Program-made: the position numbers and the translations under genes
Part shown: in pieces, positions 1-38,265 of the stretch
How positions within the stretch are numbered: the first letter of the stretch is position 1
Layout of the letters: every line of letters begins with the position of its first letter
The notes under the pieces: model-generated
The model's input: only the letters and a program-made list of their open reading frames with translations
Told to the model about the DNA's origin: nothing
Database searches by the model: none
Source: Amphiscolops sp. MND2022
Lineage: Eukaryota
NCBI GenBank assembly: GCA_964187785.1
Contig: OZ076409.1
Span: 21,268,001 to 21,332,000 of the forward strand
DNA length: 64,000 nt
Reading direction: 5' to 3'

Positions 1-874
1 TATATATTTTCAACACTTTCAACTAATATCATATTTCAACATATTTTCAACTAATAACAACTAGTTTTCAAATAGTTTTTTCTTTATCGAAAACATTATT
101 TTTCTTCCTTACATGCTGATGATACGTATGATACTAGTGGAGTCTCTCATAAATTTAGAAATGTTTTCAGGACAACCAAAGATTTTTTTTTGAATTTTTG
201 AATTACGTTTCGAGTTACTTGGTTTTTTCTCTGGAGTTAACGCTTTATCTCATAACGAGACAACCCGGTAAAATAGGTTTCAGGCACGCAGCTGTATGAT
301 CTCGGACATTTCAAAAAGTCTGTCGGAAGTTTGCAATTTGTTTTTTCTTCTTCTACCGTGACGGTCACTTCTGGTGGCTATCATAACTTTTGAAATTGTT
401 TTCATAATCATTAAGCCAGTATCATCGTTTTTGTGATTTGTTTCTGGTTTCTTGCTTAAACAGGTGTTGTATTTCAGATCGAAATGATACAAAAACCAAT
501 CATCACTCATGCTGGCATCAATTACGTGAAACTCATATTCCTGAACCTCTTGTTCCCGAATGTGTTCCTGCTGGAAAGCAATGACTGTCTTCTTCCCAAT
601 GATCGCAGGAAGGCTACAGATTTCCTCAAGAAGCATTTAAAAGGTTTATTTTCATTTATCAAAAACATACATACTACGTTTTGAACAATTACGTTTACGA
701 TCTCTAGTTAGTAACTAGAGATCGTAAACGTAATTGTCCAAAACGTGGTTGTGAGATGTAAGGAATGCACTTAAGCATAGCATTGTAGTTGATCGTTCGT
801 GGCACGTTTTGATTCATGATTGTTGCAGGACTGAACGTAAACTTCTCTGATGTATACAAGCCCCATGGATCCAG

Positions 875-1447
875 CAATTCCAATCTCTTTACCAGTTACT
901 TGATTTGCTTTGACAGAGAGAACTCAAAGATATTCCAAAGTGTAAAGATCTCTATGAGATTTATTACCAGTCAACTTTATGTCTTTTCGTTGATCGTGCG
1001 TTGACGCCATACAAATTGAAACTGGATATTTTACTCAGACTTTTTGAGAAGTGTGAGCTTCTGTCTCCATTTTATTACATGACAGAAGGAACTGAAAAAA
1101 GCCACCACACGGCAGCCAAAGACTACAATACGAAGACAATGCGTGATGGTGGCAATGATGCTTGGAACATGTCATCCAGTTATCTCGATATTCAGTTTTC
1201 CTTCTACCGTGCAATTGATTTATAATCTTCAAAGTCTTCGACACTTGAATCTTACCGGAAGTTGTATAGAAAAACCGACGTGACAAAGACGTATCTTGAA
1301 ATTTGCTGTGAACCCATTCCAGAACCGGAACTTGACTATCTTAGAACTGAAGACATGTTTAGAGGTATGCACTTTGTCATTCTTGGAACATATGGTCACC
1401 TGAAAGAAACTCAAGCGAGTCGTGAGAAGAAGATCACTGGAAATGGA
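875..1447 (+). repeat. 573-bp copy of 3335-3907 inserted into the transposase 5' exon
   Basis: Appears base-identical to 3335-3907 (offset 2460), including both nonsense codons. Confidence 0.95.
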
Positions 1448-3814
1448 CGTATTCAATTTATTGATAATATCTGCACCTCCATCATTGATTCCCTGGACGA
1501 CTGAAAGAGTTGGCTATTTACGACAATTTTTCCCTTCGTTGCCCATTCCAGGCTCAACCTCTTTTTTAACAATTGACACTATTTTTTCACAACAGTCATT
1601 GGAAACAGGCGTTTCGCTGCAGAATTTTTGGAGCTCTTCTTTGAAGACTATATCAGAATTAGAAATTGCATTGGGTCATTTTATTGAAATTCTCAAGCAG
1701 TTTTTCACAAGTCAAACTTTGAAAATCAAGAAAAAAAACACCTTAGTTCATAAACTTCTTCATTTATTTCTGCCAAACTTGTTTTGCCTTCAAAGGGAAG
1801 ATATTCAAATGGAGATTCAATGCCTACTTACTCTCAGTAATCCTCAGGATCTTTTAGTCAAAATACGTCGACTTATACAATGCCCTTTCATCAAATCCAC
1901 CATTCTCCCTTCAAGACGTGAACTTCAAGCAATCACATACAAATTGAACGAAGATTTCAGATCAAAACTTACTCCCAGAAGAACCCCCACTAGGTTCCGT
2001 GTTAATCTTGTTACTTTTGTCAGATTCGTTGCCTGCAATTTGTATAACAAGACCAGCTTAGACGGCTTGGGAGTCGACATTTATTGGTGATGCAATGTCT
2101 CGGGGGAAAAAGACGTCGTACGAATGGCCTTCCGAATTTTGCAAAGCGGCATCGAAACTGAGCAATCCTCAACCCATGTCTTCACGTTTGCTGTGTTTGA
2201 GGTGAGTCGTTCAATTTTTAATCTGAAAATTCGGAACTTGATTTCTTTTGTGAGCTACATCAAAATGTTTATTGAGAACCTAATTTTGGTCCCTGTTGTG
2301 AGCTACACTTAATAGTTTAGTGGTAACGCAAATCTAAATTTGGTCCCTGTCGTGAGTTACACTTAAATGATTACTAAGTTGTTGGAAAACCAATTTGGTC
2401 CGTCTTGAGCAGCACTCAAATGTTTTGTTGATATAATTCTAAATTTTTCCCTGTTGTGAGAAACTGGAAGTTGAAATATGAAATTTTGGAATGTTTCCCA
2501 GGGTAAAGATGCGCGAATTAACCTGGAATACAATCTCGCCATGTCAGAAGTGTTTGGACGCCCTGGATGGCTATACAACGAAACAAAGGCCTTGCATGAT
2601 GAAGGTGCTATACTGAGTTGTTCGGGTGATTCACCATTCCAACTGCGTGTTTTAAAAGGTGTTAGCAGTGATGTCTCTTGTCTGTCAAAGATGTGTCTTT
2701 ATGTCAGTGATCCTGCAGATATTTCGAATCCACCACTGAAACAGACAAAAAAAGACACCGCTGAATATAAGAGAGAAATGGAAGGAAGGGGGGTGATTCT
2801 TCCGTCAACTGTCGATTATGCTACTGGCCGAAGAACAGAACTGATCATTGACATCAACGAATGCATCCCAAAAGACTCTCTCATTTTTCTTAAATCCACT
2901 TTCAATACATGGCCTGATTTGCTGCATATGGTTGTCCGTTCAGTCGAAAGTGACTTGAAGTTGCATGTGGACTCGATGTTGCTGTTGAAAGACCAAGCAG
3001 CAATATGTAGACTCGAATGTAACATAACGGAACGGAACGAAATGTGAAACCGCCGAGATTCAAGTTGGAGATCGTTGAAAAACTCTGCAAGGCTGTATCT
3101 CTCAGTTTCAGAGACGCCGAAGTCATAATATCCGACTGCAACAGAATCAGCGACTGCGGCCGATTAGACAGCCCAATTTTTGAAGGTGTGTTTTCATTCG
3201 AAACACCTCATGTCTACAAAGCTGACCAAACAACCTCTACAACGTCTTATAACGTATTGATATCATTGGTTGATGGGTTGGAGACATCTTTCACAAAAGG
3301 AGTGGGTATTTCTGTTCGGAAACTGGCTGACCTCCAATTCCAATCTCTTTACCAGTTACTTGATTTGCTTTGACAGAGAGAACTCAAAGATATTCCAAAG
3401 TGTAAAGATCTCTATGAGATTTATTACCAGTCAACTTTATGTCTTTTCGTTGATCGTGCGTTGACGCCATACAAATTGAAACTGGATATTTTACTCAGAC
3501 TTTTTGAGAAGTGTGAGCTTCTGTCTCCATTTTATTACATGACAGAAGGAACTGAAAAAAGCCACCACACGGCAGCCAAAGACTACAATACGAAGACAAT
3601 GCGTGATGGTGGCAATGATGCTTGGAACATGTCATCCAGTTATCTCGATATTCAGTTTTCCTTCTACCGTGCAATTGATTTATAATCTTCAAAGTCTTCG
3701 ACACTTGAATCTTACCGGAAGTTGTATAGAAAAACCGACGTGACAAAGACGTATCTTGAAATTTGCTGTGAACCCATTCCAGAACCGGAACTTGACTATC
3801 TTAGAACTGAAGAC

Positions 3815-4147
3815 ATGTTTAGAGGTATGCACTTTGTCATTCTTGGAACATATGGTCACCTGAAAGAAACTCAAGCGAGTCGTGAGAAGAAGATCACTGG
3901 AAATGGAGGAAATGTTGTTTCCAATGTAGACATCATCAACAGAAGCAAGCTGAATTTTTTGAGTTATCACTATTGCATTTTACCAAATCGAAATTGTATC
4001 GACGCATTCATTAAAGGTCAACAAGGTAAAGAAAAAGCTGCAACGAAGGCGCTTTCCAATACGATACTCAGTAACTGGATTTACTTGAACGCTGAATTTG
4101 TAATCGCCTGTGTACAGAAGAAGTCCTTGATTGATCCCAAAGATTAT
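3815..4147 (+). CDS. BRCT domain, in frame with the transposase C-terminus
   Basis: MFRGMHFVILG...KKITGNGGNVV...HYCIL...LNAEFVIACVQKKSLIDPKDY matches the BRCT pattern F-x-G-x-x-F...I-x3-GG-x-V...thli...(W/F)-x3-C...Y. Confidence 0.7.
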
Positions 4148-4484
4148 GTTTTTGAAGTAGATGAGTCTGCGAGAGCCAAATTCAAAACGATGAAGTACAT
4201 ATCTATGGCCCCACAATTACAACGTCAATCAAACCCCCTACGACATGGTTCATTAACTTACCACACAGCAATGCGGAAGTACAAGAACGCACTAAAAAGG
4301 CCACCTTGAAGAGAAAACTAGACGACGTTTAATATCTGAAAATTTACTTATTTTATTACTAATTCAGTAAACAAGGTCCCTTTGACCGCTTCATTATCAA
4401 TTCAGTGCATATCTAAAAACTTACTTATTTTATCAGATAAGGTCCCTTTGACCGCTTCATTCTCAATTCAGTGCTATCTACTTG

Positions 4485-7400
4485 ATGAACCAAAGAAAAC
4501 GGCTGCGGCCAGATCATTTTCGCCAAAAAACTGCTGAAAAAGCACTACATTACAAAGTATTGTAAGGAGCAGCAAAAACGGAAAGCAGAAGGTCTCCCTA
4601 CCCGAATGTACCAGTACGGTTAGTCATTACAATGTATGTTAAAAATTGATCGACTTGTAACATTTTGAAAAGTCCAGTTTATCATGCCCGAAACGATAAG
4701 GGAAACTCAATGATTTTGAAAAAAAGTCTAGGTCTCAAACAAAAAGTGTGTTTTCATTCATGTTACTTCTATGTTACAGCAGCTGCAAAAGGCTTGACGC
4801 GGAGGCCTAACTTATGCTACGGCAGAGGTTGTGGAAAGTCATATGTTTACCCTTATGACTTGCGCGTGCACCTTTTGAAGAATCCTCAATGCCAGGAAGG
4901 AGCGAATGTGAGTGCCTGTCCTATTTTTTCCTCTTTAAGAACACATGTTGAATAATTTGATTGACCATTTGATTCTCGAAACGCCGTGTTTTACACGGTG
5001 ACAATGTGGCTGGAACTCCGAATGAGTCATATTATCGTGGCAACTGCTTAGGCTGCAGTTTCTTTGGGCTCCGATTCGTCTAGCAACGCTGACGAAATAT
5101 TCAGGCCAGAAGATTTCAACCACATTCCTTCTGATGTGTTTGGATCTGATTAATTTTTCAAGTTTGCGATGGAAGTTCCCCTCGACTACAAGTTTCCTGT
5201 AGCTCAATTTGAAGGCAACGTTGACGACCATGTCGTCAAATTCAATTCCCTGATGAGACACAGTGTGCCTCTGTTGTGGCGTGGAGGTGTCAACCATTGC
5301 CATGGTTTGAAGCTGCCTCAAGTGGAAGAACTCGCTTTCACTGAAGTTGTCCAAGAGCTTCTAGTCCCCCAGAAGCTACAAGCAAGTGCAGCAACCATCA
5401 ATGTCAAGTCGGCAAAAATTGGAGAAGTAAGTCTTTGGTAGAATTACTTTCAATTTGAAGCTTGTATTTTTCGTAAAATATCTGGAACAACTGCAATTTG
5501 ATCCCTGTCGTGAGCTCATTTTCCAACTTGGACAAGTCTTTGGTAGAATTACTTTGAATTTGAAGCTTGTATTTTTCGTAAAATATCTGGAACAACTGCA
5601 ATTTGATCCCTGTCGTGAGCTCATTTTCCAACTTGGACAAGTTGAACTTGTCGAACAAATGCATTTGAACTATTCTAACGAGCAGAAAGTTGTCCGTCTT
5701 ATTCCCGTCTTAGTCACTTTATGATCATTTCATTTCGGAGTCGTGACCTCAGTCTCGACGATTTCAAGCAGGAGCTCATCAACGCCGACAGAAGCAGCGT
5801 TTACTATCCTTTAAACGCTACAGACATCGCCATGCAGCCAAAGGTAAACAACATTGAATGAGCTCCTTTGATGGAAAACGCAAATCCACTGAAAAACGAC
5901 TTTTCCTTTTCTGTTTTTCACCAACCCCCTGTTTACTAGTAGTTGCGTACAAATTGGACATTGAGGATTTTGTTCAACATAATGCACATTGTTTTGAAAG
6001 AACTTCATCTTATATTGATTTTTTTGTCTTTTCAGTCCATCTACAGCGTGCCAACGATGATAAAAAAGTCGTCAGTGAACCACCTTGTGGACGAGCTGGT
6101 CAGTAAGTCAGCAGAACCGTTCTCAGTAGCGACTTCATACTACTTGCTGATCTCCAACGATGGTTGTCAAACAACTTGGCACACGGACTTCAGTTCAACA
6201 TCTGTCTTTTATACAGTCTTGACTGGGTCCAAGACCTTCTTTCCGGTTGCGCCAACTGAAAACAACATGAAGTTGTTCAATGCCTGGTCCAAACAAGAAT
6301 CCGACGACATGTGAGTTGAATTTTTTCACCAAGGAGTTTCAGCTTTTCTGTTCATCTATTTTTCTATTTTTTGCATCATTTTGCATCACGGGCCATCATT
6401 TTCGTACGTGTTTTCATTGAATTTGCGAAATTTTCAACTTTCAATGCACTATATTGTTTTTGCATTGCCGAAAATTTTAAGAATAGTTGCTTAGAGTTCC
6501 AACAGTTTTCGTTTTAGGCCAACATTTTTTAGATGCCACAAAAGACTGGAGGGGGGTTGCCTCAGGGTTATTCTTAATCCGGGCGACGTTTTCGCCATGC
6601 CGTCTCAGTACATCCATACAGTCCTCACAAGTGGAGACTCTGTGCCAGTACGGGCGAATTTCCTTTCAGAAGGTCATTCGAACCAGATCATGAAGGCGAT
6701 CATTGAAGAAGACTCCGTCAGGGAGCATGAGAAGTTTCCGGGCATGTTGGAAATGCTAGCTATTTTGATGCTCAAAGCATCAGAGAGATGCATGATAACT
6801 CCGGACTGACTTCCTTCGACTTCACAGGGTCATTGAGAATCGATATCAAGAAAGTGAAGCTGTTGCTGGGAGTTGTATTTTTTAGTTCACAATCGTTTCG
6901 AATCAAACTAAGTGATCGAATTAAGTATTTGTATAATGAAGCCGTGTTGTGACTCACAACAGGGATCAAAACTAAAATTGGTAATCATCAGGAATAATGT
7001 TGATGATGACGTTGTGGCTCACGACAGGGACCAAAATTAAAGGTGGTAATGATTACCAATTTTAATTTTGGTCCCTGTCGTGAGCCACAACGTTATCATC
7101 AACAATATTTGTTGATGATCAACAAAGTTGATCAAATAGCTTAGTGAGTTATCACGAGTTTTGTTTCAGATTTGCCCCGAATTCAGCAAGGAGAAACTCG
7201 TTTACAATATTTGCTCGCGCAAAGACTTCGTAAACGATGTTTGTGTCACCGCTTTCACGGAAACGGCCTCAAAAAAGGCATATCTTTTTTGCCCCAAGCC
7301 TTGCTTCAGAAGGAGGAACTGGTATACGAACGAGGACGGCGTGAAGGTCCACAAGGAAGCAATTTCTGAGGAGCGCCTCACTTTCTTGTGCCGAAGACCT

Positions 7401-7801
7401 GATGTTGACGAGCCGAATCGTGATGTTTTATTCAGCTATGAGGAAGCCATCACGTATGTTCACCCGCGACCGTCACAAACTGTCAGAGGTTTGCACAAAT
7501 TGCCGAAAAGAAAAACCCTCGTTCAAGACAGTGGTAAGTTTGCCTATTTTAGTTACATCCTGGTTGTTTCGTCTTAATATACATAGTGGTAATGTAAGTG
7601 ATAACATTCAACTCAAAACTGGTCACCTGGTTGAACATCCGTAAGGCTTACATTTGATTTTCTTATTTCCTAAAAAGACTTCAAAATGAAATTAATGGAG
7701 TTGTAATCGAATTCAATGTTTTTGTTTCAGAATTCAGACCATCTACTGATCGTTACGTTGCTTCGATCATGAGCCACCATGTCCCTGCATACAACTTGTA
7801 G
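4485..7801 (+). CDS. Spliced C2HC zinc-finger + JmjC (KDM2/KDM7-like) histone-demethylase-family gene, possibly damaged
   Basis: Exons ~4780-4907 (CYGRGCGKSYVYPYDLRVHLLKNPQC), 5163-5426, ~5740-5843, 6036-6310 (YLLISNDGCQTTWHTDFSSTSVFYTVLTGSKTFFPVAPTENN) and 6533-~6806 (LNPGDVFAMPSQYIHTVLTSGDSVPVRANFL); probable further exons 7170-7533 and 7731-7801. The Fe(II) triad H-x-D (6180-6188) and H (6615-6617) is present. The start codon and the TGA at 6807-6809 are uncertain. Confidence 0.8.
5429..5641 (+). repeat. 105-bp tandem duplication in a JmjC intron; each unit carries the 20-bp motif
   Basis: Two near-identical units beginning AAGTCTTTGGTAGAATTAC. Confidence 0.9.
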
Positions 7802-7969
7802 TTGCGTACAGACTGAGTTGTGCTTAAGAAGTTCTTGATCATTGTTAACTTAACATGTTGAACTTTCTTGTCTCCGAGTTATTTGTTGTGCTCAGTAAAT
7901 TGTACACTGTGGCTCGGTATAAACTTGTAGATTGAAAAACTGCTCTGGTTTTTTCGAATGACCGTCAAC

Positions 7970-8393
7970 CAGGGGTGTTAAATATTACATTGCAATACTA
8001 TTGCAATACTAATAAAACAATCTTTTGTTATTCTGAATTTTGTTGAAACAATAATTGCAATTATTGTGTCTATGAAAAAGATTGTTTGAAAAACCAATCA
8101 AATCAATTTGTTGATCAAATTAACATCCAAAAATTGTTCGTTGATCATTAGAAATGATTGGCATTCGAGATGCAAGGGCAGTTTTTTTTTGCGATTTTGA
8201 TATACAAAGTATTTATTAGTTTGACTGAAATGTCCGCCAAATTGGAAGTAGATGGTACCCAACGCATGTCTCCGAATTCTTTCCTTATTGTGAAAAATCA
8301 TCAATGTATTGTATTTGATAACGTTCTGGAAATAATTATTGTATACAATTTTATTGCAATTATTGTGACCTAGAATTATTTTTAACACCCCTG
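7970..8393. mobile_element. hAT-type MITE
   Basis: TIR CAGGGGTGTTAAA / TTTAACACCCCTG; 8-bp TSD CCGTCAAC at 7962-7969 and 8394-8401. Confidence 0.9.
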
Positions 8394-8684
8394 CCGTCAA
8401 CAACCGGTATTTTTTGTTCATAGCAAAATCAGCAAAACATTCAGCAAATTATTACGGCAAAGTCCAATTACCTCATAGTCTAGTTAAAATTTTTATTTTA
8501 ACTAATAATTTCATGGTAAAAAAAATTGTTGTTGACCATTATTCAATTATTAGGTTACTATTCATTCAATAAGTTAATGTGTACAATTTACCTTCGATTT
8601 ATAGTGCATTCAAAGTTTGTACAGCCTTGATCGTTTGTAAGTTTGCAACGTTCTGAGTTGTATCAACTGTGTTTTGGACAATTA

Positions 8685-8830
8685 CTGTCGGAAATGTCGA
8701 GTAGTTGTTCCCAAAAAAAGAGGGACATCTACCGTCAGAAATATCGGGTGGTTGTTTCCAAAAAAGAGGGACATTTACCGTCAGAAATATCGGGTGGTTG
8801 TTTCCAAAAAAATTATCAAATACCGTCAAA
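8685..8830 (+). repeat. Tandem repeat, ~46-bp unit, about 3 copies
   Basis: Recurring TACCGTCAGAAATATCGGGTGGTTGTTTCCAAAAAA. Confidence 0.8.
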
Positions 8831-9774
8831 ATCAATCATTGATGGCCGCCGGAAATCATCGGGTCATCGGAAGGGAGTTTCCAATTAACTTCGCCTTTGT
8901 GCTCCCTTGCATCGTATGTTTTCTCTTTCAGTACAAGCCGAGTATGAATAACAGAAGCAAAAGTCTCATTGTTAAGGAGAAAAACAGTGTTTAAGGTTGT
9001 TTAAGAATAGAAAAACGGCCAAAAGTCCCAATTCAGATTCAGTTGTCTGTAACTTTTTCAGTTTTCGTCTGAAGAATTTCAAAGTTAAATTAATGTAAAC
9101 TAGAAGAAAATTTGAGAATAGTTTCCTTCTGACAATTTTACAAATTTTCAATCGATTCCGAAAAAATCGAGCCTGAAAAAGCTCGGGGGATGTTTCCCTA
9201 ATCACAGTACTAGAGCTCTCAACCAATGAAATGAACATGTGGGCCTCAATTAGCCAATGATATCTATTCGTTCGTTTCGCCGGCGGCTGCTGTTTTTCAA
9301 AAGTTGATAAAAGTACTTCAAGTTGACTCAAGTTTGTTATGTTTGCTATAGACCAAGACTCAAGTTATTTCAATTATTCTTGACTCAGCAGCTCGGAGAA
9401 GCAACATGAATACAGGTACCTTTTGATCCCTGTCGTGAGCAAATATAAAACAGAGTTGCTAAACCAAATTTTAAGTTAAGTACCAGCTCTGAGAATCTGT
9501 ACCTGTTGTCAACTACAGTATCCTTCTTTTCTTACGATGTGTTTTCAGAAAGAAAACAACTTTCATTGAATATTGTATTTTGAATACAAAAATAGCACCA
9601 GTTTTATAATGGAATTTATGAACATTATAAAATCACAAAAAAATAATTGAAAATAAAAAACTTATCTCTTGTAGAGCAAATAAATAATGAGTTTTGAAAC
9701 TTTAAAGTTTCAAAAATAGTGGAAAAGTCGTTGAAATCATTTCAACGAAACTTTGAGTCCTTCGGGTTCAGACA

Positions 9775-10112
9775 TTATTTTAGCCTGAGCAGGCATCCTT
9801 GTTTCCTGCAGAGTGGGCACTTCACCCAAAGGGCACGATGAGTGCTTCCCCTGTGAATTTCAGGAATACAGGAATGCAAAAATGTAAAGGACACGCCTCA
9901 AAAAATTGATCAGTGAAAATTATCAGAAAGAAAAAGTGAAAACAGCTTCAATAACAGTTTTTCAAAGCAAAGTTCTGTGAAACTTACCTCTCAAGCACTT
10001 TGATCCAGGCTTGACGGCACTGATTGCATATCGCGTGTTTATCATCGAGAATCCAAATACGCGAAAAAATCTTCTCTCCACAGACAGCGCAAAGCATTTC
10101 CAGTTGGTTCAT
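9775..10112 (-). CDS. Two-exon 66-aa RING-HC-like finger protein
   Basis: Exon 1 10112-9988, GTAAGT..CAG intron, exon 2 9850-9775, giving MNQLEMLCAVCGEKIFSRIWILDDKHAICNQCRQAWIKVLERGSTHRALWVKCPLCRKQGCLLRLK*. Not in the supplied ORF track. Confidence 0.75.
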
Positions 10113-11367
10113 GTGTTTCAGGTGGTCAATAAGTACAATGATTTTTAAAAAGATATATCAGTCTTGTCACACGGTTGTTTGGAGATAGAATGGCCAACAA
10201 TCGGCCCGGGACATATAGAACACATCGTACGAAAGATTTGAACTTTATTTTGTCAGTATCTTGTTTCTATGTACGAACAACTTGCTTTGTTTCATGACTT
10301 GACAACTTGCAATTCCTTTTAATCTTTTCACTAAGCAACCACCTAGTTAATATATAACCTCTGTACCTGTAACAAATAAACGTCTCCACTTATTATTTGG
10401 TTTAGTAAACCAACGCGGTACTGCGGTAGTGCCACTTTCATTCAATTCAAAATAAGATGATAATCAAGATGATTCTTTCATATCAGTTATTATGTCGATA
10501 TAATTGTATTTGTACTTTGCGACCCTGTAGTACCACCTACTAATGTTAGTCAGAAGATTAAGTGTTTTTTCATGAAGTAAAATACTTTGTTCACATGAAA
10601 AGTTTCAATGGTTTCAAAAAATGAAATAAATAATACTTTACAGAATTGAATGACGTACATATGTATGTTTACAAAGTTTATGGAATTAACAAAGTTCATT
10701 CATTTATTACTACTAAAAAAATTAATAACGTACATATGTGGTTTTGATCCCTGTCGTGAGCAACATCAAGTTGTAACAAATAGTCTATACGAATCCGAAA
10801 CTCTGTTTGAGTCTAAAACTCTCTATCAATCTGAAAATCTGAAATGTATATTACCAAATCTCCAAGTACTTAAACGATTATTTAATTACCACTGCAGTAA
10901 ATTTAGAATTGAGGCGTGTTTAATAAAGACAACTGCCAGTGAAGGTGCCACAAGGCTGTTCAGTGAAGGTGTGTCGAAAACTGCTGAGAAGTCCTTACAC
11001 GATTAACTAATTACCACTGCAGGAAAGGGTAGATTTGAGGCATTTCAATTATGACTATTCAAATTTTGTCGATAACCGCAGCAAAGTCCTTACACGATTA
11101 ACTAATTACAATTACGAATTGAGGCTTTCTAATAATGACTTCTGAATTTCTGTCGAAAACTGAAAAGTCGATTCAGTCAAACCTTTTGCATCGATAGTGT
11201 CAACTTGCTTTCAATTCTATTAATATTGTCAACCTTTTTCTTTCGCAATCATCAACTTCTGTTCATCTTAATTTTATAATCAACTTCTGAACTTGTCAAA
11301 AATTTTTGACGAAAAGTAAAATCAGTCAATCAGATTATTCTTTCTCTCGCAATCATCAATATCTATC

Positions 11368-11805
11368 ATGTTCGATCCCGCAGCAATGACAATCAGGTCG
11401 TGTATTCGTCCAATAGATGAACTGATCTCAAACTGTGGACCACCACACAGAAAAAACGTGCGTTTTGCGGACTCAACCACTGTGATGACCAATCAACTTG
11501 AAACATCTCCGACACATCCGAGAGCTTGGAGGATCAAAAGAAGCGCACCTATTCCTGACAACCCACTCCCGCACCCACTCCCAACAACTCCACCCACTCT
11601 AATCTCCGGGAACAAAAAAACAGTAGTTCCGGGAACAAAAACAGTGAGGTTCCCTTTCATAGAAAGAGCTATATCACCGGATGGAGAAGTATCAGAGTCC
11701 GTCATTTCTTTAAAAGACTCGGAAACCAATCATTGTGATGAATACTGGAAACCTGGGGCTCTCGACGACAAGCCGTTTATAATGAACTGCCGAACAACAA
11801 GATAG
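11368..11805 (+). CDS. 145-aa Pro-rich ORF with two RVxF-like (PP1-docking) motifs
   Basis: Clean ATG-to-stop ORF in AT-rich surroundings; contains KNVRF and KTVRF, with RSCIR upstream. Confidence 0.45.
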   Translation: MFDPAAMTIRSCIRPIDELISNCGPPHRKNVRFADSTTVMTNQLETSPTHPRAWRIKRSAPIPDNPLPHPLPTTPPTLISGNKKTVVPGTKTVRFPFIERAISPDGEVSESVISLKDSETNHCDEYWKPGALDDKPFIMNCRTTR

Positions 11806-12510
11806 AATTTAAAGTTACTATTCTGCTCTTCTAGTACAGTTGTCACAACTGCACTAGAAGAGCAGAATAGTACAATAGTGTAAGAAATAAACTGAACCTT
11901 TTTTTGTAAGAAAAGAATTGGACCAAAACAAAACTTGCTCTGATTTTTGCTACCATCCAAGTTATTTTAAAATAAATTAAACAAACATTCTAGAGTTTTG
12001 TTGGGCACTTGAAATGTAGGTTTGCAAATAATGAAGAAACTTCCTAATTTAATTTTTCATTGATTGTATTTACTACTGAATGGGCATATGGGACATCATT
12101 TTGGACAATTTTGTAACATTTGCACTTAATTCGGAACTTTTGTTTATTTGGCAGGTACTTCTTCATTTACTAAAGCCATTCAACTATTTTACATCAAGAT
12201 AATTGCTATTATATAGTTCTGGAAAGGGGTTTTCTATTATTTAATTTCATTAACAATCTTAATACGTGGGAGAGAGCTATTTTTCGCAAAGATTGGGGAT
12301 TATGTTTTCGGTTATAGAATCTGCTAATTAAGGTGATTATACCCATTATCTTAGACATTCAATTGGTCCTTCCAGTCCCTTAATATCATGGCTAAAATAG
12401 AGAATGAACGAAATTCCCATGTAAAATGCTCTGTTTACATGCAGTCCAAACTATTTCTTACAAATAAGGGTTCAGTTCTTTTCTTACACTATTGTAACTT
12501 AAAATGTAAC

Positions 12511-13119
12511 CAGGGCTACCGAAAAAATAATGGATCAAACCATTATTTTTGATAAATAATTTGTTTCTAGTATATTTCCATTCAGATAATTTATTTCTGT
12601 CATTCGAAAAATACCACAATTTATTTCGGAATTTTCCATTATTTTAGAAATAAAATGAAGCTACAAAGCAAATAAAGGCAGACGCTACCGCCAAGGCAGC
12701 TTGCCGTAGGTAGGCTATTGTAAATTTCATTTCATTTTTATTCCATCAATTTCTAACATATGCGAACGGCTCTTTAGCCGTGCAAAACTGACCCAGGGAT
12801 ACTTGAGACATCAAAATATAGCATCAAAACATAGAGATATCAAAACAAAAATAAGCAAGCTTCAAGGTGCATTGTGGTCAAGCTATGATAGCTTGTCCCC
12901 AATGCACCTTGAAGCTTGCTTATTTTTGTTTATTAACAAAACTTTGTGGAATGTAAATGTTATTAATGAAGTAATAAATATGGCTGACAATTGAAATGGA
13001 TATAATTTATTTTTTTTTGCTGAGAAAATATAGTTATTCATGGGCATTAAATCTAAAATAAATCTATAAATTAAATAAAAAAATTGAAAAAAAACTAAAA
13101 TAAATTTTCGGTAGCCCTG
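12511..13119. mobile_element. hAT-type MITE
   Basis: TIR CAGGGCTACCGAAAA / TTTTCGGTAGCCCTG; 8-bp TSD AATGTAAC at 12503-12510 and 13120-13127. Confidence 0.9.
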
Positions 13120-13259
13120 AATGTAACATTGGTTCTAAATTCTGAATGTGGACGAAACAGTTTGGTTTCAGTATCTCAGTATCGGATGCGAATTTTACCT
13201 CCGGGGTAAAATTCGCATCCGATACTGAGATACTAAAGCCAAACTGTTTCGTCCAATCA

Positions 13260-13985
13260 GATTTTAGAACCAACCAACGAGTCGTCATCTGGAAGGACAA
13301 ATTTGATGATCAACTTGCAAAGCGAAAGAAAGATCGGTCGTCTCGATACGAACTTCTAGACCTATTACACAGTCTGAAATCCAACCTGTCAAACTTGAAA
13401 GCGAATGGTCAATGTGTGAACAACTTCTTGACTCAAGGACGAACTTGGTGGACGAAATTGAAGATCTTTCCTACCCACTTGAAAAAGGGATGGAGGAAAT
13501 TGAACCCTTGGTTTCGGCCCAGTTTAATGCCCAAAACTTCGCAACCCTCAGTGAGGAGAATTTGAAGCAAGAACAAAACAAATGCCTGGAACTTCAAGAA
13601 GGGGTTCAAGCTCAGAGAATCTCAATTGGCAAGTTACAGAAGAATATGTTGATGATTGAGGCCTTTTACAAAACCATTCAAAACTCACAGATTCAGAACA
13701 GCACCCAAGATAACGAATCAGTGGCTAGTTTGAGCGACCGCGTGATCGGAATCATGAACAGATACAACGCCATTTCTTCCAACGTGGAGGAAAGACCGCA
13801 ACAACTGTATTTCGACATAGAGGAGTCCTTACAGGTATTGAGATTGTGATTGTTATGTATCCGAAGAAACTGAAAGAACAGCTGAAGAATCTATCGCAAG
13901 TTAGAACAAATCTGGAGGACACCGGTGCCGAAATTGACAAGATCAAGGCCAACGCTGAGCAAATGTTGAAGAGTAATCCTCACAA
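13260..13985 (+). pseudogene. Frameshifted spectrin-repeat (spectraplakin/dystrophin-like) gene fragment
   Basis: Helical heptads LKQEQNKCLELQEGVQAQRISIGKL, LSDRVIGIMNRYNAISSNVEER and PKKLKEQL..RTNLEDTGAEIDKIKANAEQML are typical of spectrin repeats; split over three frames. Confidence 0.55.
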
Positions 13986-14762
13986 TCGAATTTATTATTT
14001 CAGAACAATATATTGTCAATTCATGATATTATTCATTTATTCAATAAAAAATTAATTGATATTTATTGATATTATTCAATGAAAAATTATTAACGTACAT
14101 ATGTGGTTTTGATCCCTGTCGTGAGCAACATCCAGAAAAGTTGTAATAAATAGTCTATACGAAGTTGAAACTTTATCAAACCGAAAACAGTAGTTTATGG
14201 AATACCGATCTTGAATTATTGAACTAAAAACGAAGTTTGGACCATGTGCCTTATCCTCCCTCAGATAAATACTGTTTCTTATCCAACAATACCCCCCCAC
14301 CAAGTCTTCCCAAACAAATGAAAGTAGGTCTCATAATGAAGGGGCGATTGCTTCATTGAACTTGGTAATTTTGGTCCCTGTCGTGAGCACTTCCTGTAGT
14401 CAGATTTACTGTTTATGCGATTTGATACTGTGTATGCGAATCAAGCAGTGTAGTTTTGAGTCGGCGTGTGTAGCTCACCAGTAACAACCCGTAATTACCA
14501 GAACTATGTGTAAATATGAGATGCACAGTGTAGTTAGTCAAATTGCCTAAACTAGTCATATGGTGTAAACTAGTCATTTACTGTACTGTCCAATGGTGTA
14601 AACTAGTCAACGTACGAAGCTGTGTCACATAGTGTAACGTCCTATCAATGCGCGTAATGTGTGACAAGTGTAAAACTTCCAAAAAAAATATTCGCGCTCT
14701 GATTTGACAAAAATCGAACTAGCAGGATTCTGCTAGTTCGTACCGGCATGTGTATCGTAATG

Positions 14763-15694
14763 TTCCCATACATACTCAATGGGCGACAAATCAGGCGAAG
14801 TTGGTGGCCAGGGAAGGGTGCGTATATCGTTTTGTGCCAAAATTTGGTTGGTGATATCAGCAGAATGCGGAGACGCATTATCCTGTTGGAAGATCCAAAC
14901 TTCTGGGTAGGACTGCAAGAACGGAACTACTTCGGGCACTAGGACTACGTCAGTGTATCGTTGAGCGGTTATTGGACCTTCTACAAAAACTAAATTGGTA
15001 CGGTAGTTGTGAGAAATTCCAGCCCAAACCGTTATTCCCCCGATATTTCAGCGATCAAAGTGCAGTTAATTTTTTTTGCATATCGGGTTTTGGGTTGACG
15101 ATAGATTTTGATCCGACCATCATGCTTGTGCAAGCAAAACCTACTCTCATCTGACCATAAGATTTGTTTCCATTGTTGATTCCACCTTCTAGTTTTGTCT
15201 GCAAAAATGCATCGCATTTTTTGTTTTGTTGACTGATTACAGGCACTTTGTGGGGTTTTCTGCATTGTAGACCATATTTTTTGAGTATTCTGCCAACAGT
15301 AAACCTGCATACGGCCCATTGGTTGCCGGACTCAACCGCTGTCGAAAATGGGTTTTCTTTATGGTTTCTAACAATTTGTCTTTCGCTTCGCACTAAGAAC
15401 ATCTTTGGTCGTCCCGGTCTGTGCCCATCTCGAACTGATCCAGTTTATAAATAGCGCTCCCAAGTGTTCTTAACTGTTCGTTATTGATATCCGTATTTGG
15501 TAGCAACTTGGTCAGAAGTTGCACCAAACTTAATTGCACTGATCAATTCGCTTCTTTTTTCACACAAGAAACTGCAACCTCAAAACGTGATAAAGTATTT
15601 GAATTGAATTGGTGGCGTGAATAGTTTAGTTTTTCAGCTTCTGTTCTAGCCTTTTCAAAACTTTGCTCAAAGCGCATATTTATGCTCACCACTG
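14763..15694 (-). mobile_element. Degenerate Tc1 element, 3'-truncated
   Basis: TA+CAGTGGTGAGCATAAA end at 15694; WSDESRF, FQQDNASPH and WPPTSPDLSPIEYVW motifs in broken frames. Confidence 0.85.
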
Positions 15695-15944
15695 TAAGGT
15701 ATAGTACTTAAGCGTCTTTCTCTGTCTCTCTCTACAAGGATTGTGGCTGGTATGGGGTTTTCTTTAGTTGCGGACCACGGATGTGTGTTTTTTCCCCTAA
15801 CATGATGACAGTCATTCCTACACCGAAAGGTGCTCGTGCATGGCAATGTCATCGGAATCGTATGACTGGGATCTGAGTCCGAAATTGACCTGGGATCTGA
15901 GCCCAAAGATCACGAAATGACAAAGTTCGAAAGTTCATAACGCT

Positions 15945-16310
15945 CATGAAGGCAAGTTTGGGTCTCAATGGCTCAACGTGGTTCCTTGCATGAACCTAGG
16001 ACTGAAACTTGATGATCAGCAACTTCGAATTTCAATTGGTTTGCGCCTCGGTGCCAACATCTGCGTTGAGCATACGTGCCACTGTGGTAAAAGGGTTGAA
16101 CGGGACGGTTTACACGGTCTTTCTTGCACCAAGAGTGCTGGTCGCTTCTCACGTCATGCTACTCTCAATTCTCTCATAAAGCAGACGTTGGAAGTCTCGA
16201 CTTGCCTTCAATGCTCGAACCACGTGGACTCTACCGAACTCATGGCAAACGCCCGGACGGTGTTACCATGTTTCCTTGGTAATTGGGTAAACAGCTGTTG
16301 TGGGATGTGG
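15945..16310 (+). pseudogene. Fragment of an RLE-type (CRE/NeSL-like) non-LTR retrotransposon C-terminus; second copy at 18815-19185
   Basis: WLNVVP..LRLG..CHCG..DGLHGLSC..RFSRHATLN (CCHC finger and RH motif) followed by EPRGL..GKRPDG..PW..WDV in a shifted frame. Confidence 0.75.
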
Positions 16311-17063
16311 GGCAGGGAAATTTCGTCACCAGCCATTTGGGCGACAAAAATTTCTACCCAATTCGGCGACAATAATGTCGCTCAAATGTCCCGTCAATTT
16401 TGTGCCCTAAATGCCGATGCGAAGCGAAGTGGAGCGACGTGCAATATGGCCTTGTGTAACGTCAGGCAAGGACGTTGCAGAAATTTTTGAATATTTCGAT
16501 CAAAAATTCGAAATGTGCGGTATCAAACAAGCACATTCAACATGGCCGACCCGGCAGGTACGAAAATCGTAGAGGAAGCAAAATTAAGGCAAAACACCAC
16601 CCAGAAGACCCCAGCCCCGACCCAGGAACGTGAAAGTCAGCGATGTCATCACCCAGAAGGCGAGAAAATCAGGAATTGTGCCATCTGACAGCAAAAAGAC
16701 AAGGTGTCGGCAGAAAAGTGCCAAATGAGACCAATGTGCCCCGAAGATGAGGAAAGTTGCCGGAAGCCAAACTGACGATCAACCCTGAACTGTAATGTTA
16801 TTGGGGCTTATCCTAGTGATTTATTACCGTTTACGGAGTGTTTGGATGATATTTGATCTACTAGATCTGTATTTTAGAACTTATTCTCCAAATACAATGT
16901 ATTTCAGTTAGACACCTTTTTAGACCTCGGAAGTATGTAGCAGGTGGCAGGAATGTATGTCAGTAACCTAGGATACGTTTTTACAGACTTGTGGGGCGTT
17001 TCCGGACTTTGAGAGTGCCGGCACGTCGCCTCGGAGCTCTAACTAGAGAAGCCTCCTTAGACG

Positions 17064-17623
17064 GGTAAATGGTCACTTGGCTTAATGCCATTTGGCTTAA
17101 AGTCATTTGGCTTAATACAATTGGTCACTTCGCTTGGTTTTTTTATGCTAAGTGTCTCGGGTATTGGTCACTTGGCTTAAAGTCATTTGACTTAAAACCA
17201 CTTAGTTGAAAACACGTGGCAGATTTTGTTGAATTTATCTTTATAATGTAGTCAGTGTATTATTATAACGTTTATCAAGTACCCCTCGGATATGTCCCCA
17301 TTTCCTCTTGTGCCCTGCGGCCCCTTGGGGCCGCTTATATTCCCATCTTATTAAGCGAGGTCAAGCAGGAGCAAAGACTTAGCGGGAACGAAGATCGTGT
17401 AGCGATCGTAGTGGGAGCTGGTCTTTGCGACGGTGAGGGCGAGCGTGCATACACCGCATATGTTCCTCATTATGATATTTCCGGGAGTTGACATATTTAT
17501 TCCTTGAGTTGAAATGGAGTTGGCCTAAATTTGTGGTCACTTGGCTTAAAATTTTTTAAGTCAAATGACTCGACGAAAAAATTAAGCCGAATGGTATTAA
17601 GCCAAGTGACTGGAAGCCAAGCC
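17064..17623. mobile_element. GG..CC-terminal MITE (MuDR-like); second copy at 19955-20508
   Basis: Inverted ends GTCACTTGGCTTAA / TTAAGCCAAGTGAC; TSD CTTAGACG on both sides. Confidence 0.75.
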
Positions 17624-18564
17624 CTTAGACGATAGAAAAGCCCATTTGGAGACCATTTTGGGATCAAAAACTAGTGTCTAGGGATGTAGTAAGACAACGG
17701 TCTCCTGTTTAAGCATCCTAAGCCTTGTCCCTCTTCCAAGATGTACGCAAAAAATTGAAGGGGGACCCTTTAGGGAAAAAAATTTCAGAAAAAAGTCTCG
17801 CAGTGCCGATAAAAATGAAATGGGGGATCCTTTGGTCTCGCCCGGTATGGTATGTTACGCGGAAAAACAGGAAAAACCTTTTTGGTTCAGTTTGCTAGGC
17901 CAAATAGTGCAATTTGATGCAATAATATTTTGTAGAACAATTTTGGTCAGTTCGTGTGGATAGAAAATGTCTCTATAATAGTCGCGTTTCACTTCATGAA
18001 GCGCCGACTAAAAATGGAACAAAATGGCAATAAAGTACCTAAATTTTTTTGCACATGACGAAGTCAATGTGCATTGCAGTCCAGCTAAGTAAGTTTTTTT
18101 TCCACTATAGTCAACTTCATTGGTCAACTTCCACAGTATTCTGCCAACAGTAAACTTGCATACGGCCCATTGGTTGCCGGACTCAACCGCTGTCGAAAAT
18201 GGGTTTTCTTTATGGTTTCTAACAATTTGTCTTCCGCTTCGCACTAAGAACATCTTTGGTCGTCCCGGTCTGTGACTATCTCGAACTGATCCAGTTGATA
18301 AATAGCGCTCCCAAGTGTTCTTAACTGTTCGTTATTGATATCCGTATTTGGTAGAAACTTGGTGAGAAGTTGCACTAAACTTAATTGCACTGATCAATTC
18401 GCTTCTTTTTTCACACAAGAAACTGCAACCTCAAAACGTGATAAAGTATTTGAATTGAATTGGTGGCGTGAATAGTTTAGTTTTTCAGCTTCTGTTCTAG
18501 CCTCTTCAAAACGTTGCTCAAAGCGCATATTTATGCTCACCACTGTAAGGTATAGTACTTAAGC

Positions 18565-18606
<42 letters not shown>

Positions 18607-21048
18607 AAGGATTGTGGCTGGTATGGGGTTTTCTTTAGTTGCGGACCACGGATGTGTGTTTTTCCCCTAACATGATGACAGTCATTCCTACACCGAAAGG
18701 TGCTCGTGCATGGCAATGTCATCGGAATCGTATGACTGGGATCTGAGTCCGAAATTGACCTGGGATCTGAGGCCAAAGATCACGAAATGACAAAGTTCGA
18801 TAGTTCTTAACGCTCATGGAGGCAAGTTTGGGTCTCAATGGCTCAACGTGGTTCCTTGCATGAACCTAGGACTGAAACTTGATGATCAGCAACTTCGAAT
18901 TTCAATTGGTTTGCGCCTCGGTGCCAACATCTGCGTTGAGCATACGTGCCACTGTGGTAAAAGAGTTGAACGGGACGGTTTACACGGTCTTTCTTGCACC
19001 AAGAGTGCTGGTCGCTTCTCACGTCATGCTACTCTCAATTCTCTCATAAAGCAGACGTTGGAACTCTCGACTTCGACTTGCCTTCAATGCTCGAACCACG
19101 TGGACTCTACTGAACTAATGGCAAACGCCCAGACGGTGTTACCATGTTTCCTTGGTAATTGGGTAAACAGCTGTTGTGGGATGTGGGGCAGGGACATTTC
19201 GTCACCAGATATTTGGGCAACAAAAATTTCTGCCCAATTCGGCGACAATTATGTCGCCCAAATGTCCCGTCAATTTTGTTCACATAGCCCTAGTGCCCTA
19301 AATGCAGATGCGAAGCGAAGTGGAGCGACTTGCAATATGGCCTTGTGTAACGTCAGGCAAGGACGTTGCAGAAATTTTTGAATATTTCGATCAAAAATTC
19401 GAAATGTGCGGTATCAAACAAGCACATTCAACATGGCCGACCCGGCAGGTACGAAACCCGTAGAGGAAGCAAAATAAAGGCAAAACACCACCCAGAAGAC
19501 CCCAGCCCCGACCCAGGAACGTGAAAGTCAGCGACGTCATCACCCAGAAGGCGAGAAAATCAGGAATTGTGCCATCTGACAGCAAAAAGACAAGGTTTCG
19601 GCAGAAAAGTGCCAAATGAGACCAATGTGCCCCGAAGATGAGGAAAGATGCCGGAGGCCAAACTGACAATCAACCCTGAACTGTAATGTTATTGGGGCTT
19701 ATCCTCGTGCTTTATTACCGTTTACGGAGTATTTGGATGATATTTGATCTACTAGATCTGTATTTTAGAACTTATTCTCCACATACAATGTATTTCAGTT
19801 AGACACCTTTTTAGACCTCGGAAGTATGTAGCAGGTGGCAGGAATGTATGTCAGTAACCTAGGATACGTTTTTACAGACTTGTGGGGCGTGTCCGGACTT
19901 TGAGAGTGCCGGCACGTCGCCTCGGAGCTCTAACTAGAGAAGCCTCCTTAGACGGGTAAATGGTCACTTGGCTTAATGTCATTTGGCTTAAAGTCATTTG
20001 GCTTAATACAATTGGTCACTTCGCTTGGTTTTTTTATGCTAAGTGTCTCGGGTATTGGTCACTTGGCTTAAAGTCATTTGACTTAAAACCACTTAGTTGA
20101 AAACACGTGGCAGATTTTGTTGAATTTATCTTTATAATGTAGTCAGCGTATTATTATAACGTTTATCAAGTACCCCTCGGATATGTCCCCATTTCCTCTT
20201 GTGCCCTGCGGCGCCTTGGGGCCGCTTATATTCCCATCTTGCTAAGCGAGGTCAAGCAGGAGCAAAGAGTTAGCGGGAACGAAGATCGCGAAGCGATCGT
20301 AGTGGGAGCTGGTCTTTGCGACGGTGAGGGCGAGCGTGCATACACCGCATATGTCCCTCATTATGATTTTTCCGGGAGTTGACATATTTATTCCTTGAGT
20401 TGAAATGGAGTCGGCCTAATTTTTTGGTCACTTGGCTTAAAATTTTTAAGTCAAATGACTCGACGAATAAATTAAGCCAAATGGTATTAAGCCAAGTGAC
20501 TGGTAACCCTTAGACGATAGAAAAGCCCATTTTGAGACCATTTTGGGATCAAAAACTAGTGTCTAGGGATGTAGTAAGACAACGGTCTCCTGTTTAAGCA
20601 TCCTAAGCATTGTCCCTCTTCCAAGATGTTCGCAAAAAATTGAAGGGGGACCCTTTAGGGAAAAAAATTCGAAAAAAAGTCTCGCAGTGCCGAAAAAAAT
20701 GAAATGGGGGACCCTTTGGTCTCGCCCGGTATGATATGTTACGCGGAAAAACAGGAAAAACCTTTTTGGTTCAGTTCGCTAGGCCAAATAGTGCAATTTG
20801 GTGCAATAATATTTTGTAGAACAATTTTGGTCAGTTCGTGTGGATAGAAAAAAGTCTCTATAATAGTCGCGTTTCACTTCATGAAGCGCCGACTAAAAAT
20901 GGAATAAAATGACAATAAAGTACCTATTTTGTTTTTGCACATGACGAAGTCAATGTGCATTGCAGTCCAGCTAAGTAAGTTTTTTTTCCACTATAGTCAA
21001 CTTCATAGGTCAACTTCCACTATAGTCAACTTTAGATAAAAGCCAAAA

Positions 21049-24100: not shown

Positions 24101-24726
24101 TACTGCGAGTTTATGCAGACGAGCTCGTTCTCTGTCAGCCAATCCAGAAGCTCTAGGCCTTGTGCGTTGGATGATCGTAGGCCAAAACGGTTTTCTTCCG
24201 CAATGTGGGCGTTGAAATCGCCGCCCATCAGGAAGAATTTTCCATTTCCGTGTGTCGTCATTATTCTTTCTACTCCACTTCTCAGATTCTCCAGATCTTT
24301 CTCATAGTTTTCCGATCCAGCCACTGGTTGGTAAACTGATAGAATTAACGAGTGTTCTAATTTTATCCCTGTGACTCTTTCTGTCGCGAACCATTTGCGA
24401 CCCTGGGATTCCCATAAGGCGTACATTTGTTCAGACAGGAGTACTGCCGTTTTTTGGGAGTAGATCAGGTAAGAGATCTTTTTCTCGTGTTGGTACGAGC
24501 GTATCCCTTTGTCGCGTGTGTTCAGTTCACTCAGGAGAGTGATGCTCCATTTCTCTTCCATGCATCTTTTGACTTGTTCTCCGAATCTGCTACCGAACAG
24601 GTTCGCCCTGTTCACATTCCAGGTGGCTATTTTTATCTCTGTTCCCTCTAGTTGGTTTATTAAGGAAATCTTTCGCTTCTCTCTCTTTATTTCTCTTCGT
24701 TGTTTCCTTCTACAGCTCGTGTGTCC

Positions 24727-24750
24727 CGGCCCTGGATTGCTTTCAATGTC
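24727..24750 (-). other. 2A-like ribosome-skipping motif DIESNPG/P
   Basis: ALETDIESNPGP lies in the LINE ORF just upstream of the APE domain and matches D(V/I)ExNPGP. Confidence 0.8.
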
Positions 24751-24917
24751 TGTTTCCAGAGCAGAACATTTGTAAACCCTCTGATGTGTTCGGTTGACAA
24801 ACGTTGCCGATGGGTTCGCCTGTTTTCTTTTTGAAGAGGTGGACTGGTCGGCTAATCCAGCTACCCTCTGTTCCGGATAGGCTCTTCCAGTTAGTACCTG
24901 GTATGTGCCCCCCAGCC

Positions 24918-24986
24918 TGAAATTCTTTTTGTCGTCAGAGACGTCCACTAGGCACCATGCGAGGAGGTTGAATTTCATCGCCCAGC
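24918..24986 (-). ncRNA. HDV-like self-cleaving ribozyme at the LINE 5' end
   Basis: P1 GCUGGGC/GCCUAGU (G1-U wobble); P2 UGAAAUUC/GAAUUUCA; P3 ACC/GGU; L3 UCCUCGCAU; P1.1 GG; P4 CGUC/GACG; J4/2 CAAAA. G1 is the first base inside the TSD. Confidence 0.9.
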
Positions 24987-25078
24987 TATATATACGCATA
25001 TTAAAATAATCGATGTCTTCGTCATGTGTTGCGAAGCACCGCTTCGCCTCTGTTCCAATATTTTGCTCTGTTTCCGAC

Positions 25079-25278
25079 NNNNNNNNNNNNNNNNNNNNNN
25101 NNNNNNNNNNNNNNNNNNNNNNNNNNNNNNNNNNNNNNNNNNNNNNNNNNNNNNNNNNNNNNNNNNNNNNNNNNNNNNNNNNNNNNNNNNNNNNNNNNNN
25201 NNNNNNNNNNNNNNNNNNNNNNNNNNNNNNNNNNNNNNNNNNNNNNNNNNNNNNNNNNNNNNNNNNNNNNNNNNNNNN
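25079..25278. other. Assembly gap (200 N)
   Basis: Run of N. Confidence 1.
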
Positions 25279-36809: not shown

Positions 36810-36895
36810 CTTCTTTGCGTCTTTGTTAGTTCCTCTTTCTTTGCTTACTTCTCTCCCTTATCTTCCCTTCACCTTTTTGAGTTGCTGAACCCTTC

Positions 36896-38239: not shown

Positions 38240-38265
38240 TGTCCAAGTCTTCCGCAGTTTAATTC

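Follow-up and report, generated by a model that had tools for sequence, protein, structure and literature searches.

Sequence-specific reversal of silencing by transposons has been shown in plants, as set out in the sections drawn on here of the reports on VANC (PMC5735166) and TnpA (10.64898/2026.08.24.746577). In the sections on VANC, the target motif is family-specific, lies in non-coding DNA and introns in one orientation and forms tandem arrays that turn over, with elements that possibly hitchhike on the system (PMC5735166), and those on TnpA describe the activation of cognate copies, via short motifs, by Spm TnpA and by a MuDR transposase (10.64898/2026.08.24.746577). The parts used of a 2025 meeting report name only VANC for anti-silencing (PMC12859917). 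Other mobile DNA carries chromatin enzymes, according to excerpts that report TET/JBP in fungal transposons and SET in HarbingerS and oomycete MuDR (PMC12730594) as well as a KDM4-like JmjC domain in giant-virus insertions of Amoebidium (PMC11244446), and REF6 of Arabidopsis is presented, in the passages used, as a four-finger histone demethylase with DNA-sequence specificity (PMC12264921). Here we describe a stretch of 64,000 nucleotides of contig C1 of genome G000 (hereafter, the window) that holds the right part of a DNA transposon of family F1. F1 carries a real and family-specific 20-bp motif that is very likely functional, and the zinc-finger/JmjC protein encoded by the element itself probably binds this motif, as suggested by finger residues that change together with motif bases.

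Scanning the window with the pattern TTTTGRTCCCTGTYGTGAGC yielded 7 exact matches, 10 at one mismatch or fewer and 11 at limits of two to four mismatches. All 11 lie within 2284-14388, and the other 49.6 kb of the window held no TTTTGRTCCCTGTYGTGAGC match at up to 4 mismatches. A first-pass annotation had counted about 14 occurrences of a repeated motif; the repetition is confirmed, the good matches are 11, and the count reaches 14 only with three decayed units in the transposase intron (Table 1). The layout that it had described was largely recovered: the tandem units spaced by about 55 bp form a 54-bp array of about four units at 2248-2367, the 105-bp duplication is present, and the inverted pair has arms of 58 nt, accompanied by a third site, on the minus strand at 6952-6971, that had been overlooked. 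The plus strand carries nine of the 11 good sites, in agreement with the one-strand preference noted before. Inverted duplications are frequent in the F1 element and not specific to the motif.

Comparison of four motif clusters on C1 revealed that F1 is one family of 27-41 kb DNA transposons with ends CATTAC..GTAATG and terminal repeats CATTACGATACAC..CCGGTA. The genome contains 627 exact F1 termini, and paired ends across families showed a 2-bp target duplication in 25 of 30 cases and a 3-bp one in a single case. At least 132 transposase copies at 92-100% identity, mostly as a 617-aa open exon, were found among the 150 matches scored out of 829 candidates. The window copy is collinear with three other copies at ~95-99%. 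The first-pass annotation had recognized an element but had made it far too small; it starts 26.4 kb upstream of the window and ends at 14762. This copy is defective, carrying frameshifts, an internal duplicate of 3335-3907 at 875-1447 and a deletion of finger 1.

A genome-wide scan for enrichment in the family, proposed together with the motif, returned 2,596 exact copies of the 18-letter core in the 1.07-Gb genome and none of a reversed control. Further motif loci on C1 belonged in 22 of 22 cases to the F1 family, to older subfamilies (72-90%) or to internal-deletion derivatives; these 22 were drawn from the first 100 listed matches outside the four large clusters, 2,496 matches being unlisted, and one of them (L020) was assigned to F1 by a 96-bp match alone. 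An unrelated MITE (miniature inverted-repeat transposable element) or minisatellite as the source of the motif finds no support in these 22 loci or in the 13 unrelated flank contexts of the motif within one copy. A looser search with the motif frame gave 3,448 matches against 409 for the control, and 20 loci fetched from it comprised two old F1 ends, five loci of the unrelated repeat described next with a diverged relative, and otherwise lone matches in other repeats or chance.

Thirteen of the first 100 frame matches listed fell in an unrelated multi-copy repeat with one 17/20 match to the F1 motif (five loci fetched, L061-L065 near 4990; on G000:C1, e.g. at 10603181). This repeat starts with TGT and has a 1415-aa frame on the opposite strand with no Pfam match, its 17/20 site lying ~975 bp from the end, and a relative at 72% identity (L075 near 4994) carries a variant that agrees with the F3 motif in its final 11 bases. 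It is possibly a hitchhiker on the system, or the match is due to chance.

Seven of the eight related families examined, with transposase identities as low as 31%, have 20-bp variants of their own in a common frame; the patterns were fitted family by family. F2 and F3, with 67-71% transposase identity to F1, are without the F1 motif and have motifs of their own, TTTTGYTTACTGKCATGATC and TTTTACRAACTGTCTTGAGC, respectively. Allowing up to 3 mismatches, the pattern of each of F1, F2 and F3 matched 14-34 times in elements of that family and never in those of the other two; the patterns of F1 and F8 overlap at up to 4 mismatches. The distant families F5-F8, whose transposases are 31-32% identical to that of F1, share its cargo and motif frame; their motifs are TTTTGGTATCCACCGTGAGT in F5, TTTTGGTTCCAATYRWGGGT in both F6 and F7 and TTTTGGTCCCAATCGTGAGT in F8. 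Copies of F1, F2 and F3 hold 23, 37 and 17 sites compared with 0.07, 0.13 and 0.37 in shuffles, and the counts for F5, F6, F7 and F8 are 8, 12-21, 10 and 9-10, with 0-0.7 in shuffles. Relatives at 30-70% identity are known as proteins, mostly on short contigs, and a metagenome scan with one such relative (P0009) found no locus.

Units of the GGTTTCCACGA type, the first motif candidates in F6 and F8, were set aside as inverted units of ~95 bp common to both families. Bounded by inverted GGTTTCCACGA ends, they recur 5-10 times within elements of F6 and F8 (L159-L162, L167-L170, L187-L190), are probably a nested small element and may alternatively be a second binding motif.

None of 77 sites in F1-F3 lies in the mapped exons, which make up 27-37% of the length, and the sites stand in 13, 12 and 12 unrelated flank contexts in F1, F2 and F3. 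Strands split 17/6 in F1, 30/7 in F2 and 13/4 in F3, and 21 of 21 F6 sites are on one strand. Sites recur in orthologous introns of the transposase, recombinase/SET and JmjC genes; the orthologous transposase intron contains arrays of 54 bp (F1), 45 bp (F2) and 43 bp (F3), each built of its own family variant. Non-coding location, mostly one orientation, intron arrays and family-specific variants, all predicted from the analogy with VANC, were found here.

Could such a pattern arise by neutral concerted evolution of a meaningless 20-mer, or reflect a role in RNA, in splicing or as a small-RNA target? The element often duplicates or inverts short stretches, intronic sites lean to the sense strand and the direct signal of selection is weak, all of which would suit this explanation. 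It is opposed by the sharp edge of conservation at 20 bp, where the top-base frequency is 0.45 in the flanks and 0.85-0.92 in the motif, and by the survival of the frame through synonymous saturation and down to 31% protein identity; an RNA role is further opposed by an antisense six-unit array in a finger-gene intron of F2 and by the intergenic position of about half of the sites. Neutrality moreover does not predict the covariation with the fingers described below, and we give this explanation a very small probability. A splicing or RNA role, a likeness to recombination signals and a likeness to Sm sites were set aside on grounds of strand and position.

The cargo of F1 consists of a three-finger/JmjC gene, a gene for a tyrosine-recombinase fold and a SET domain, and an unassigned gene L; exon limits and expression were deduced from the sequence. 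The JmjC domain is KDM2A/PHF8/KDM7-like (E 1.4e-8 to KDM2A) and keeps the HxD..H metal ligands, which are present in F2 too. Finger ligands are mostly C2HC with linkers of 12-30 residues, canonical C2H2 ligands and short linkers not being found, and finger 1 of F1 is split by a small intron. The first exon of the SET gene is predicted to adopt a tyrosine-recombinase-core fold (model pLDDT 82) with XerH as best structural match (Z 9.0, rmsd 3.9, 129 aligned); the top 26 rows of the search were all of the recombinase/topoisomerase IB fold, including Ndc10, MrpR and QRICH1, and the first catalytic Arg looks, by eye, replaced. ESM Atlas returned only matches under 0.8 for this protein. The second exon is a SETD8-like SET domain, and a distant relative, P0097, has the recombinase fold and SET in a single frame. 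The model of protein L was poor (pLDDT 44) and matched no fold in a usable way, and a Pfam scan of the cargo frames found no DUF1985 or DUF287 match. Cargo proteins are 46-71% identical between families (30% for one exon) with synonymous sites saturated, and the cargo is under purifying selection.

To relate fingers to motif bases we used the C2H2 code, in which, in the review passages drawn on, G is bound by Arg, Lys or His, A by Asn or Gln and C by Asp (PMC12264921). In finger 1, position +6 is Arg throughout the seven families, +3 is Asn in F1, F2, F3, F5 and F8 and His in F6 and F7, and -1 is Lys or Arg except for Val in F2. Motif triplet 17-19, unconstrained during counting, was GAG with the K/N/R finger of F1 (21/23) and F3 (15/20) and with the R/N/R finger of F5 (7/9) and F8 (8/8), GGG with the R/H/R finger of F6 (12/17) and F7 (6/8), and GAT with the V/N/R finger of F2 (30/34). 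Positions 17-19 therefore obey the code of finger 1 in seven of seven families, and the finger changes are paired with changes in the motif: a switch from GAG to GGG accompanies Asn to His, and one from GAG to GAT accompanies Lys to Val. In all seven families the bottom strand of positions 13-11 agrees with finger 3, a fit made after looking: Asp at +3 accompanies a central C in F1 (22/23), F2 (35/37) and F3 (15/18), the finger R-S-D-S-L-Q-R accompanies GTG in F5 (5/10), and Asn at +6 with Ser or Val at +3 accompanies ATT in F6 (16/19), F7 (10/10) and F8 (7/10). Finger 2 does not fit the code and faces the most variable positions; it may be a spacer, as in other finger arrays. The first-pass annotation had named the transposase or the zinc-finger/JmjC protein as reader of the motif, and the second candidate is favoured by covariation with the motif, which the transposase does not show.

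These changes bear also on the proposal that the motif is the site of a host factor, such as an insulator or a germline activator, that is used by all families and whose variants drift in degenerate positions. The age and conservation of the frame and the single 17/20 match in the unrelated repeat suit a host site. Against it, the positions at which families differ are almost invariant within any one family across 12-13 unrelated flank contexts, and they change with the finger residues of the element; nor did the 20 loci fetched from the frame search include a clear population of unique host sites. We consider a host-factor site hardly probable.

The motif could instead be a site of the transposase that, in the manner of TnpA, pairs the ends of the long element or activates it. 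Plant precedent exists for such activation in the excerpts on Spm TnpA and a MuDR transposase (10.64898/2026.08.24.746577), and motif sites cluster near both ends in F1, F2, F6 and F8. F1-F3 have, however, a separate subterminal repeat, YAGTCAA-like, that is the likelier transposase site: it occurs 7 times in the first 600 nt of each of these families and 3 (F1) and 5 (F2) times in the last 400 nt, compared with 0.4-0.6 per kb inside the elements. Motif distance is also out of step with transposase distance, F1 and F8 differing at 3 positions at 32% identity and F1 and F2 at 6 positions at 71%. Because the motif does not follow the transposase and the separate repeat exists, the transposase is the poorer candidate for the reader. 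In addition, old left ends fetched by terminal repeat (30 of 142, with 4 tandem duplicates dropped) reach the motif in 6 of 26 cases and stop aligning before it in 20, and the frame is absent from six short F4 elements whose ends are intact. A transposase site thus appears very unlikely to us. The transposase core itself had no sequence match in Pfam or PDB, only a BRCT domain being found, and its putative catalytic triad was assigned by eye. An alignment of 14 relatives (A1), read by eye, shows GDSPF, CPDxxH, YKLK and TExxEKSxH as conserved; the spacing of the acidic residues of the transposase presumably recalls RAG1/Transib.

Returning to the finger-JmjC protein, we consider it fairly probable that it binds the motif and counters silencing of cognate copies. 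It likely binds the 3' half of the motif and demethylates local histones, reader and eraser being fused in one VANC-like protein. Finger 1 would read top-strand positions 17-19, finger 2 would span the variable positions 14-16 and finger 3 would read bottom-strand positions 13-11, with positions 1-10 read by another part or a partner, for which the recombinase-fold/SET protein is the first candidate. The demethylase would act on cognate copies and counter host silencing, and the many sites per element would extend its action over 17-40 kb. When a finger changes, selection would favour the corresponding change in every site, with tandem and inverted duplications spreading it, and such matched changes would keep co-resident families from serving each other. 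That F1 and its relatives form an old clade of giant transposons in animals with a self-addressed chromatin-editing kit, made up of a zinc-finger histone demethylase and, as its partner, a recombinase-fold/SET methyltransferase, in which fingers and label change together by the C2H2 code, has in our view an even chance.

Several points weigh against this reading. Support from finger 1 consists of two independent changes only, because F6 and F7 are sisters, and Val at -1 does not positively specify T but only removes the contact to G. The fit of finger 3 is post hoc, with three states that follow clades, and it needs the strand opposite to that of finger 1, a geometry not found in the passages of the review drawn on. 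Positions 1-10 are as conserved and lie beyond the reach of three fingers, and conservation within the motif is partly by construction because the patterns were fitted per family. F4 showed neither motif nor fingers in five loci; all were decayed and the de novo search was swamped by nested repeats, and this absence is therefore uninformative. The direct test of selection was weak: the old left ends depart from the young copy at 11 of 239 motif bases and at 7-17% of flank positions, and variation among copies is 4-5% in the motif and 5-8% in the flanks. Two F1 derivatives lacking the motif (L081, L082) have target duplications; the junction of L082 is single-copy, and hence they do not show mobility without the motif. 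Binding, expression and chromatin effect of the finger-JmjC protein are predictions. Furthermore, KDM2-type enzymes remove the active mark H3K36me2 and SETD8-type enzymes write H4K20me1, and therefore the effect could be self-restraint.

This last point leads to the proposal that the proteins bind the motif to restrain the element, by self-silencing or germline timing, or that the recombinase-fold/SET protein is the main reader and the fingers are accessory. The XerH-like fold fused to a SETD8-like SET domain, in one frame in P0097, is in line with such a reader, as are positions 1-10, to which no other reader is assigned. Residue-to-base covariation is nevertheless confined to the fingers, and the many near-identical intact copies suit activation better than restraint, which is not proof. 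We regard this proposal as unlikely.

Table 1. Features of the F1 copy in the window
Feature	Position	Strand	Remarks
Right 14.8 kb of a 41-kb defective F1 copy	1-14762	+	left end outside the window, at G000:C1:21241560; inverted repeats and TT duplication
Transposase exon with first putative catalytic Asp	1404-2201	+	frameshift near 2085; open in copies B and C
Transposase intron with 54-bp tandem array	2202-2501	+	motif sites 2284-2303, 2338-2357; decayed units 2236, 2393, 2442
Main transposase exon with C-terminal BRCT-like domain	2502-4318	+	broken in the window copy
Zinc-finger exons with finger 3 and what is left of finger 2	4500-4955	+	finger 1 deleted here, present in copies B, C and D
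JmjC exons, predicted limits ~5154-5426, 6036-6311, 6495-6855, 7170-7534	5154-7534	+	KDM2A/PHF8/KDM7-like; HxD..H metal ligands
105-bp duplication in JmjC intron	5429-5642	+	motif sites 5496-5515, 5601-5620
JmjC intron, three motif sites in inverted duplication	6952-7109	.	6952-6971 (-), 7017-7036 (-), 7066-7085 (+)
Lone motif site in spacer	9421-9440	+	
Motif site	10742-10761	+	flanks common with the 14107 site and one close to the left end
Motif site close to right end	14107-14126	+	
Last motif site	14369-14388	+	374 bp inside the right end
Short subterminal YAGTCAA-like repeats	14530-14610	+	second motif class, likely transposase sites
Right terminal inverted repeat CATTACGATACACATGCCGGTA	14741-14762	-	target duplication TT at 14763-14764

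Further features of the element and its relatives concern nested and derived elements. Copies C and D (G000:C1:48865210 and 31231964) and F3 copies (L045-L058) contain copies of the left terminal repeat inside introns, in the recombinase/SET intron in F1 and in several in F3, and shorter sub-elements could move alone. A long poly-Thr repeat, (ACT)n, forms the end of the SET exon (L003:4400-4950, L004, L006-L007, L015-L016), and elements of 7-9 kb have inserted into it in three of four copies; two of these elements have tyrosine-recombinase-like frames, and one also has SET and finger-like frames. No such motif frame was seen in the recombinase/SET elements nested in copies A, B and D. A recurrent 12.2-kb element with F1 ends and a mostly unrelated interior (G000:C1:41309799-41322032 and four more places) is probably a non-autonomous family with captured sequence. 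MITEs of 420-1260 bp with F4-type ends and 2-bp duplications are abundant (L085-L090), and shared termini of the CATTACGAKAC type number 3,627 genome-wide. Near-perfect hairpins with loops of 1-5 nt, unrelated to the motif, lie inside the element at 673-749, 11816-11872, 12843-12931 and 13149-13255 of the window.

Beyond the element, the regions 14763-15444 and 15284-19592, 21204-25290, 36881-43089, 56627-62020 and 62362-63186 of the window hold, by labels given by eye, Tc1-like remnants, a 2.87-kb tandem duplication, a LINE-like and a Gypsy-like retroelement, a 1403-aa exon with a GPS-like motif downstream of it, and a Tc1-like transposase. The F1 element is inserted into one of the Tc1-like remnants. 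One frame of the window we take to be adhesion-receptor-like, and from such gene content the host is probably an animal. Near the F5 copy lies a Polinton/adintovirus-like gene cluster (L152-L154, G000:C1:50.92-50.93 Mb), with frames that are presumably polymerase-, ATPase-, integrase- and capsid-like.

Outside subscription journals, Repbase Reports and supplements, our literature searches yielded neither a description of F1 nor one of an animal transposon that pairs a finger-guided demethylase with a cognate motif. Both halves of the system, reader and site, are named here, and base-level binding rules are predicted from seven natural variants. If the proposed function is true, this would be sequence-specific anti-silencing by a transposon in an animal, with reader and eraser in one protein and seven orthogonal pairs in one genome; it would show how elements of 17-40 kb stay active at hundreds of copies, and it would provide a residue-by-base record of protein-DNA co-evolution and compact orthogonal pairs for epigenome editing.

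Compared with described transposons, F1 and its related families resemble the CMCT clade in their 5'-CA..TG-3' ends and in a 2-bp target duplication, within the 2-5 bp range given for the clade in the excerpt used (PMC12730594). They differ in a BRCT-like C-terminus and in a size of 17-41 kb with chromatin cargo, and neither C(2)C nor H(3-4)H was seen by eye in alignment A1 of 14 relatives; because these two signature motifs of the clade are lacking by eye, we did not file the element in CMCT. Like Spm/CACTA TnpA, it combines CA..TG ends, a family-specific regulator and clustered motifs, and it differs from TnpA, which in the sections used has terminal sites of 7-10 bp, a transposase-derived helix-turn-helix (HTH) as reader and an action through host DNA glycosylases (10.64898/2026.08.24.746577), in that F1-type sites span the whole element and covary with zinc fingers. 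REF6 likewise aims a JmjC enzyme by its own fingers; it is a host gene acting on host loci, unlike the transposon-borne KDM2/7-like enzyme found here, whose predicted target is the transposon itself. The TET/JBP, SET and KDM4-like cargoes mentioned above have, as far as the excerpts on them go, no sequence-specific reader with a cognate co-evolving motif. With VANC and VANDAL the likeness extends to a motif that is family-specific, non-coding, mostly in one orientation, arranged in tandem arrays and different in related families, and to possible hitchhiker elements. Unlike VANC, where motifs of 8-9 bp need density, the motif here is 20 bp long and private to its family; the proteins are not of the DUF1985/DUF287 type but a candidate finger-JmjC reader next to a SET gene, in another transposon superfamily; and binding, shown for VANC, is predicted here, in a host that is probably an animal. 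The system works like VANC but is neither VANC nor VANDAL.

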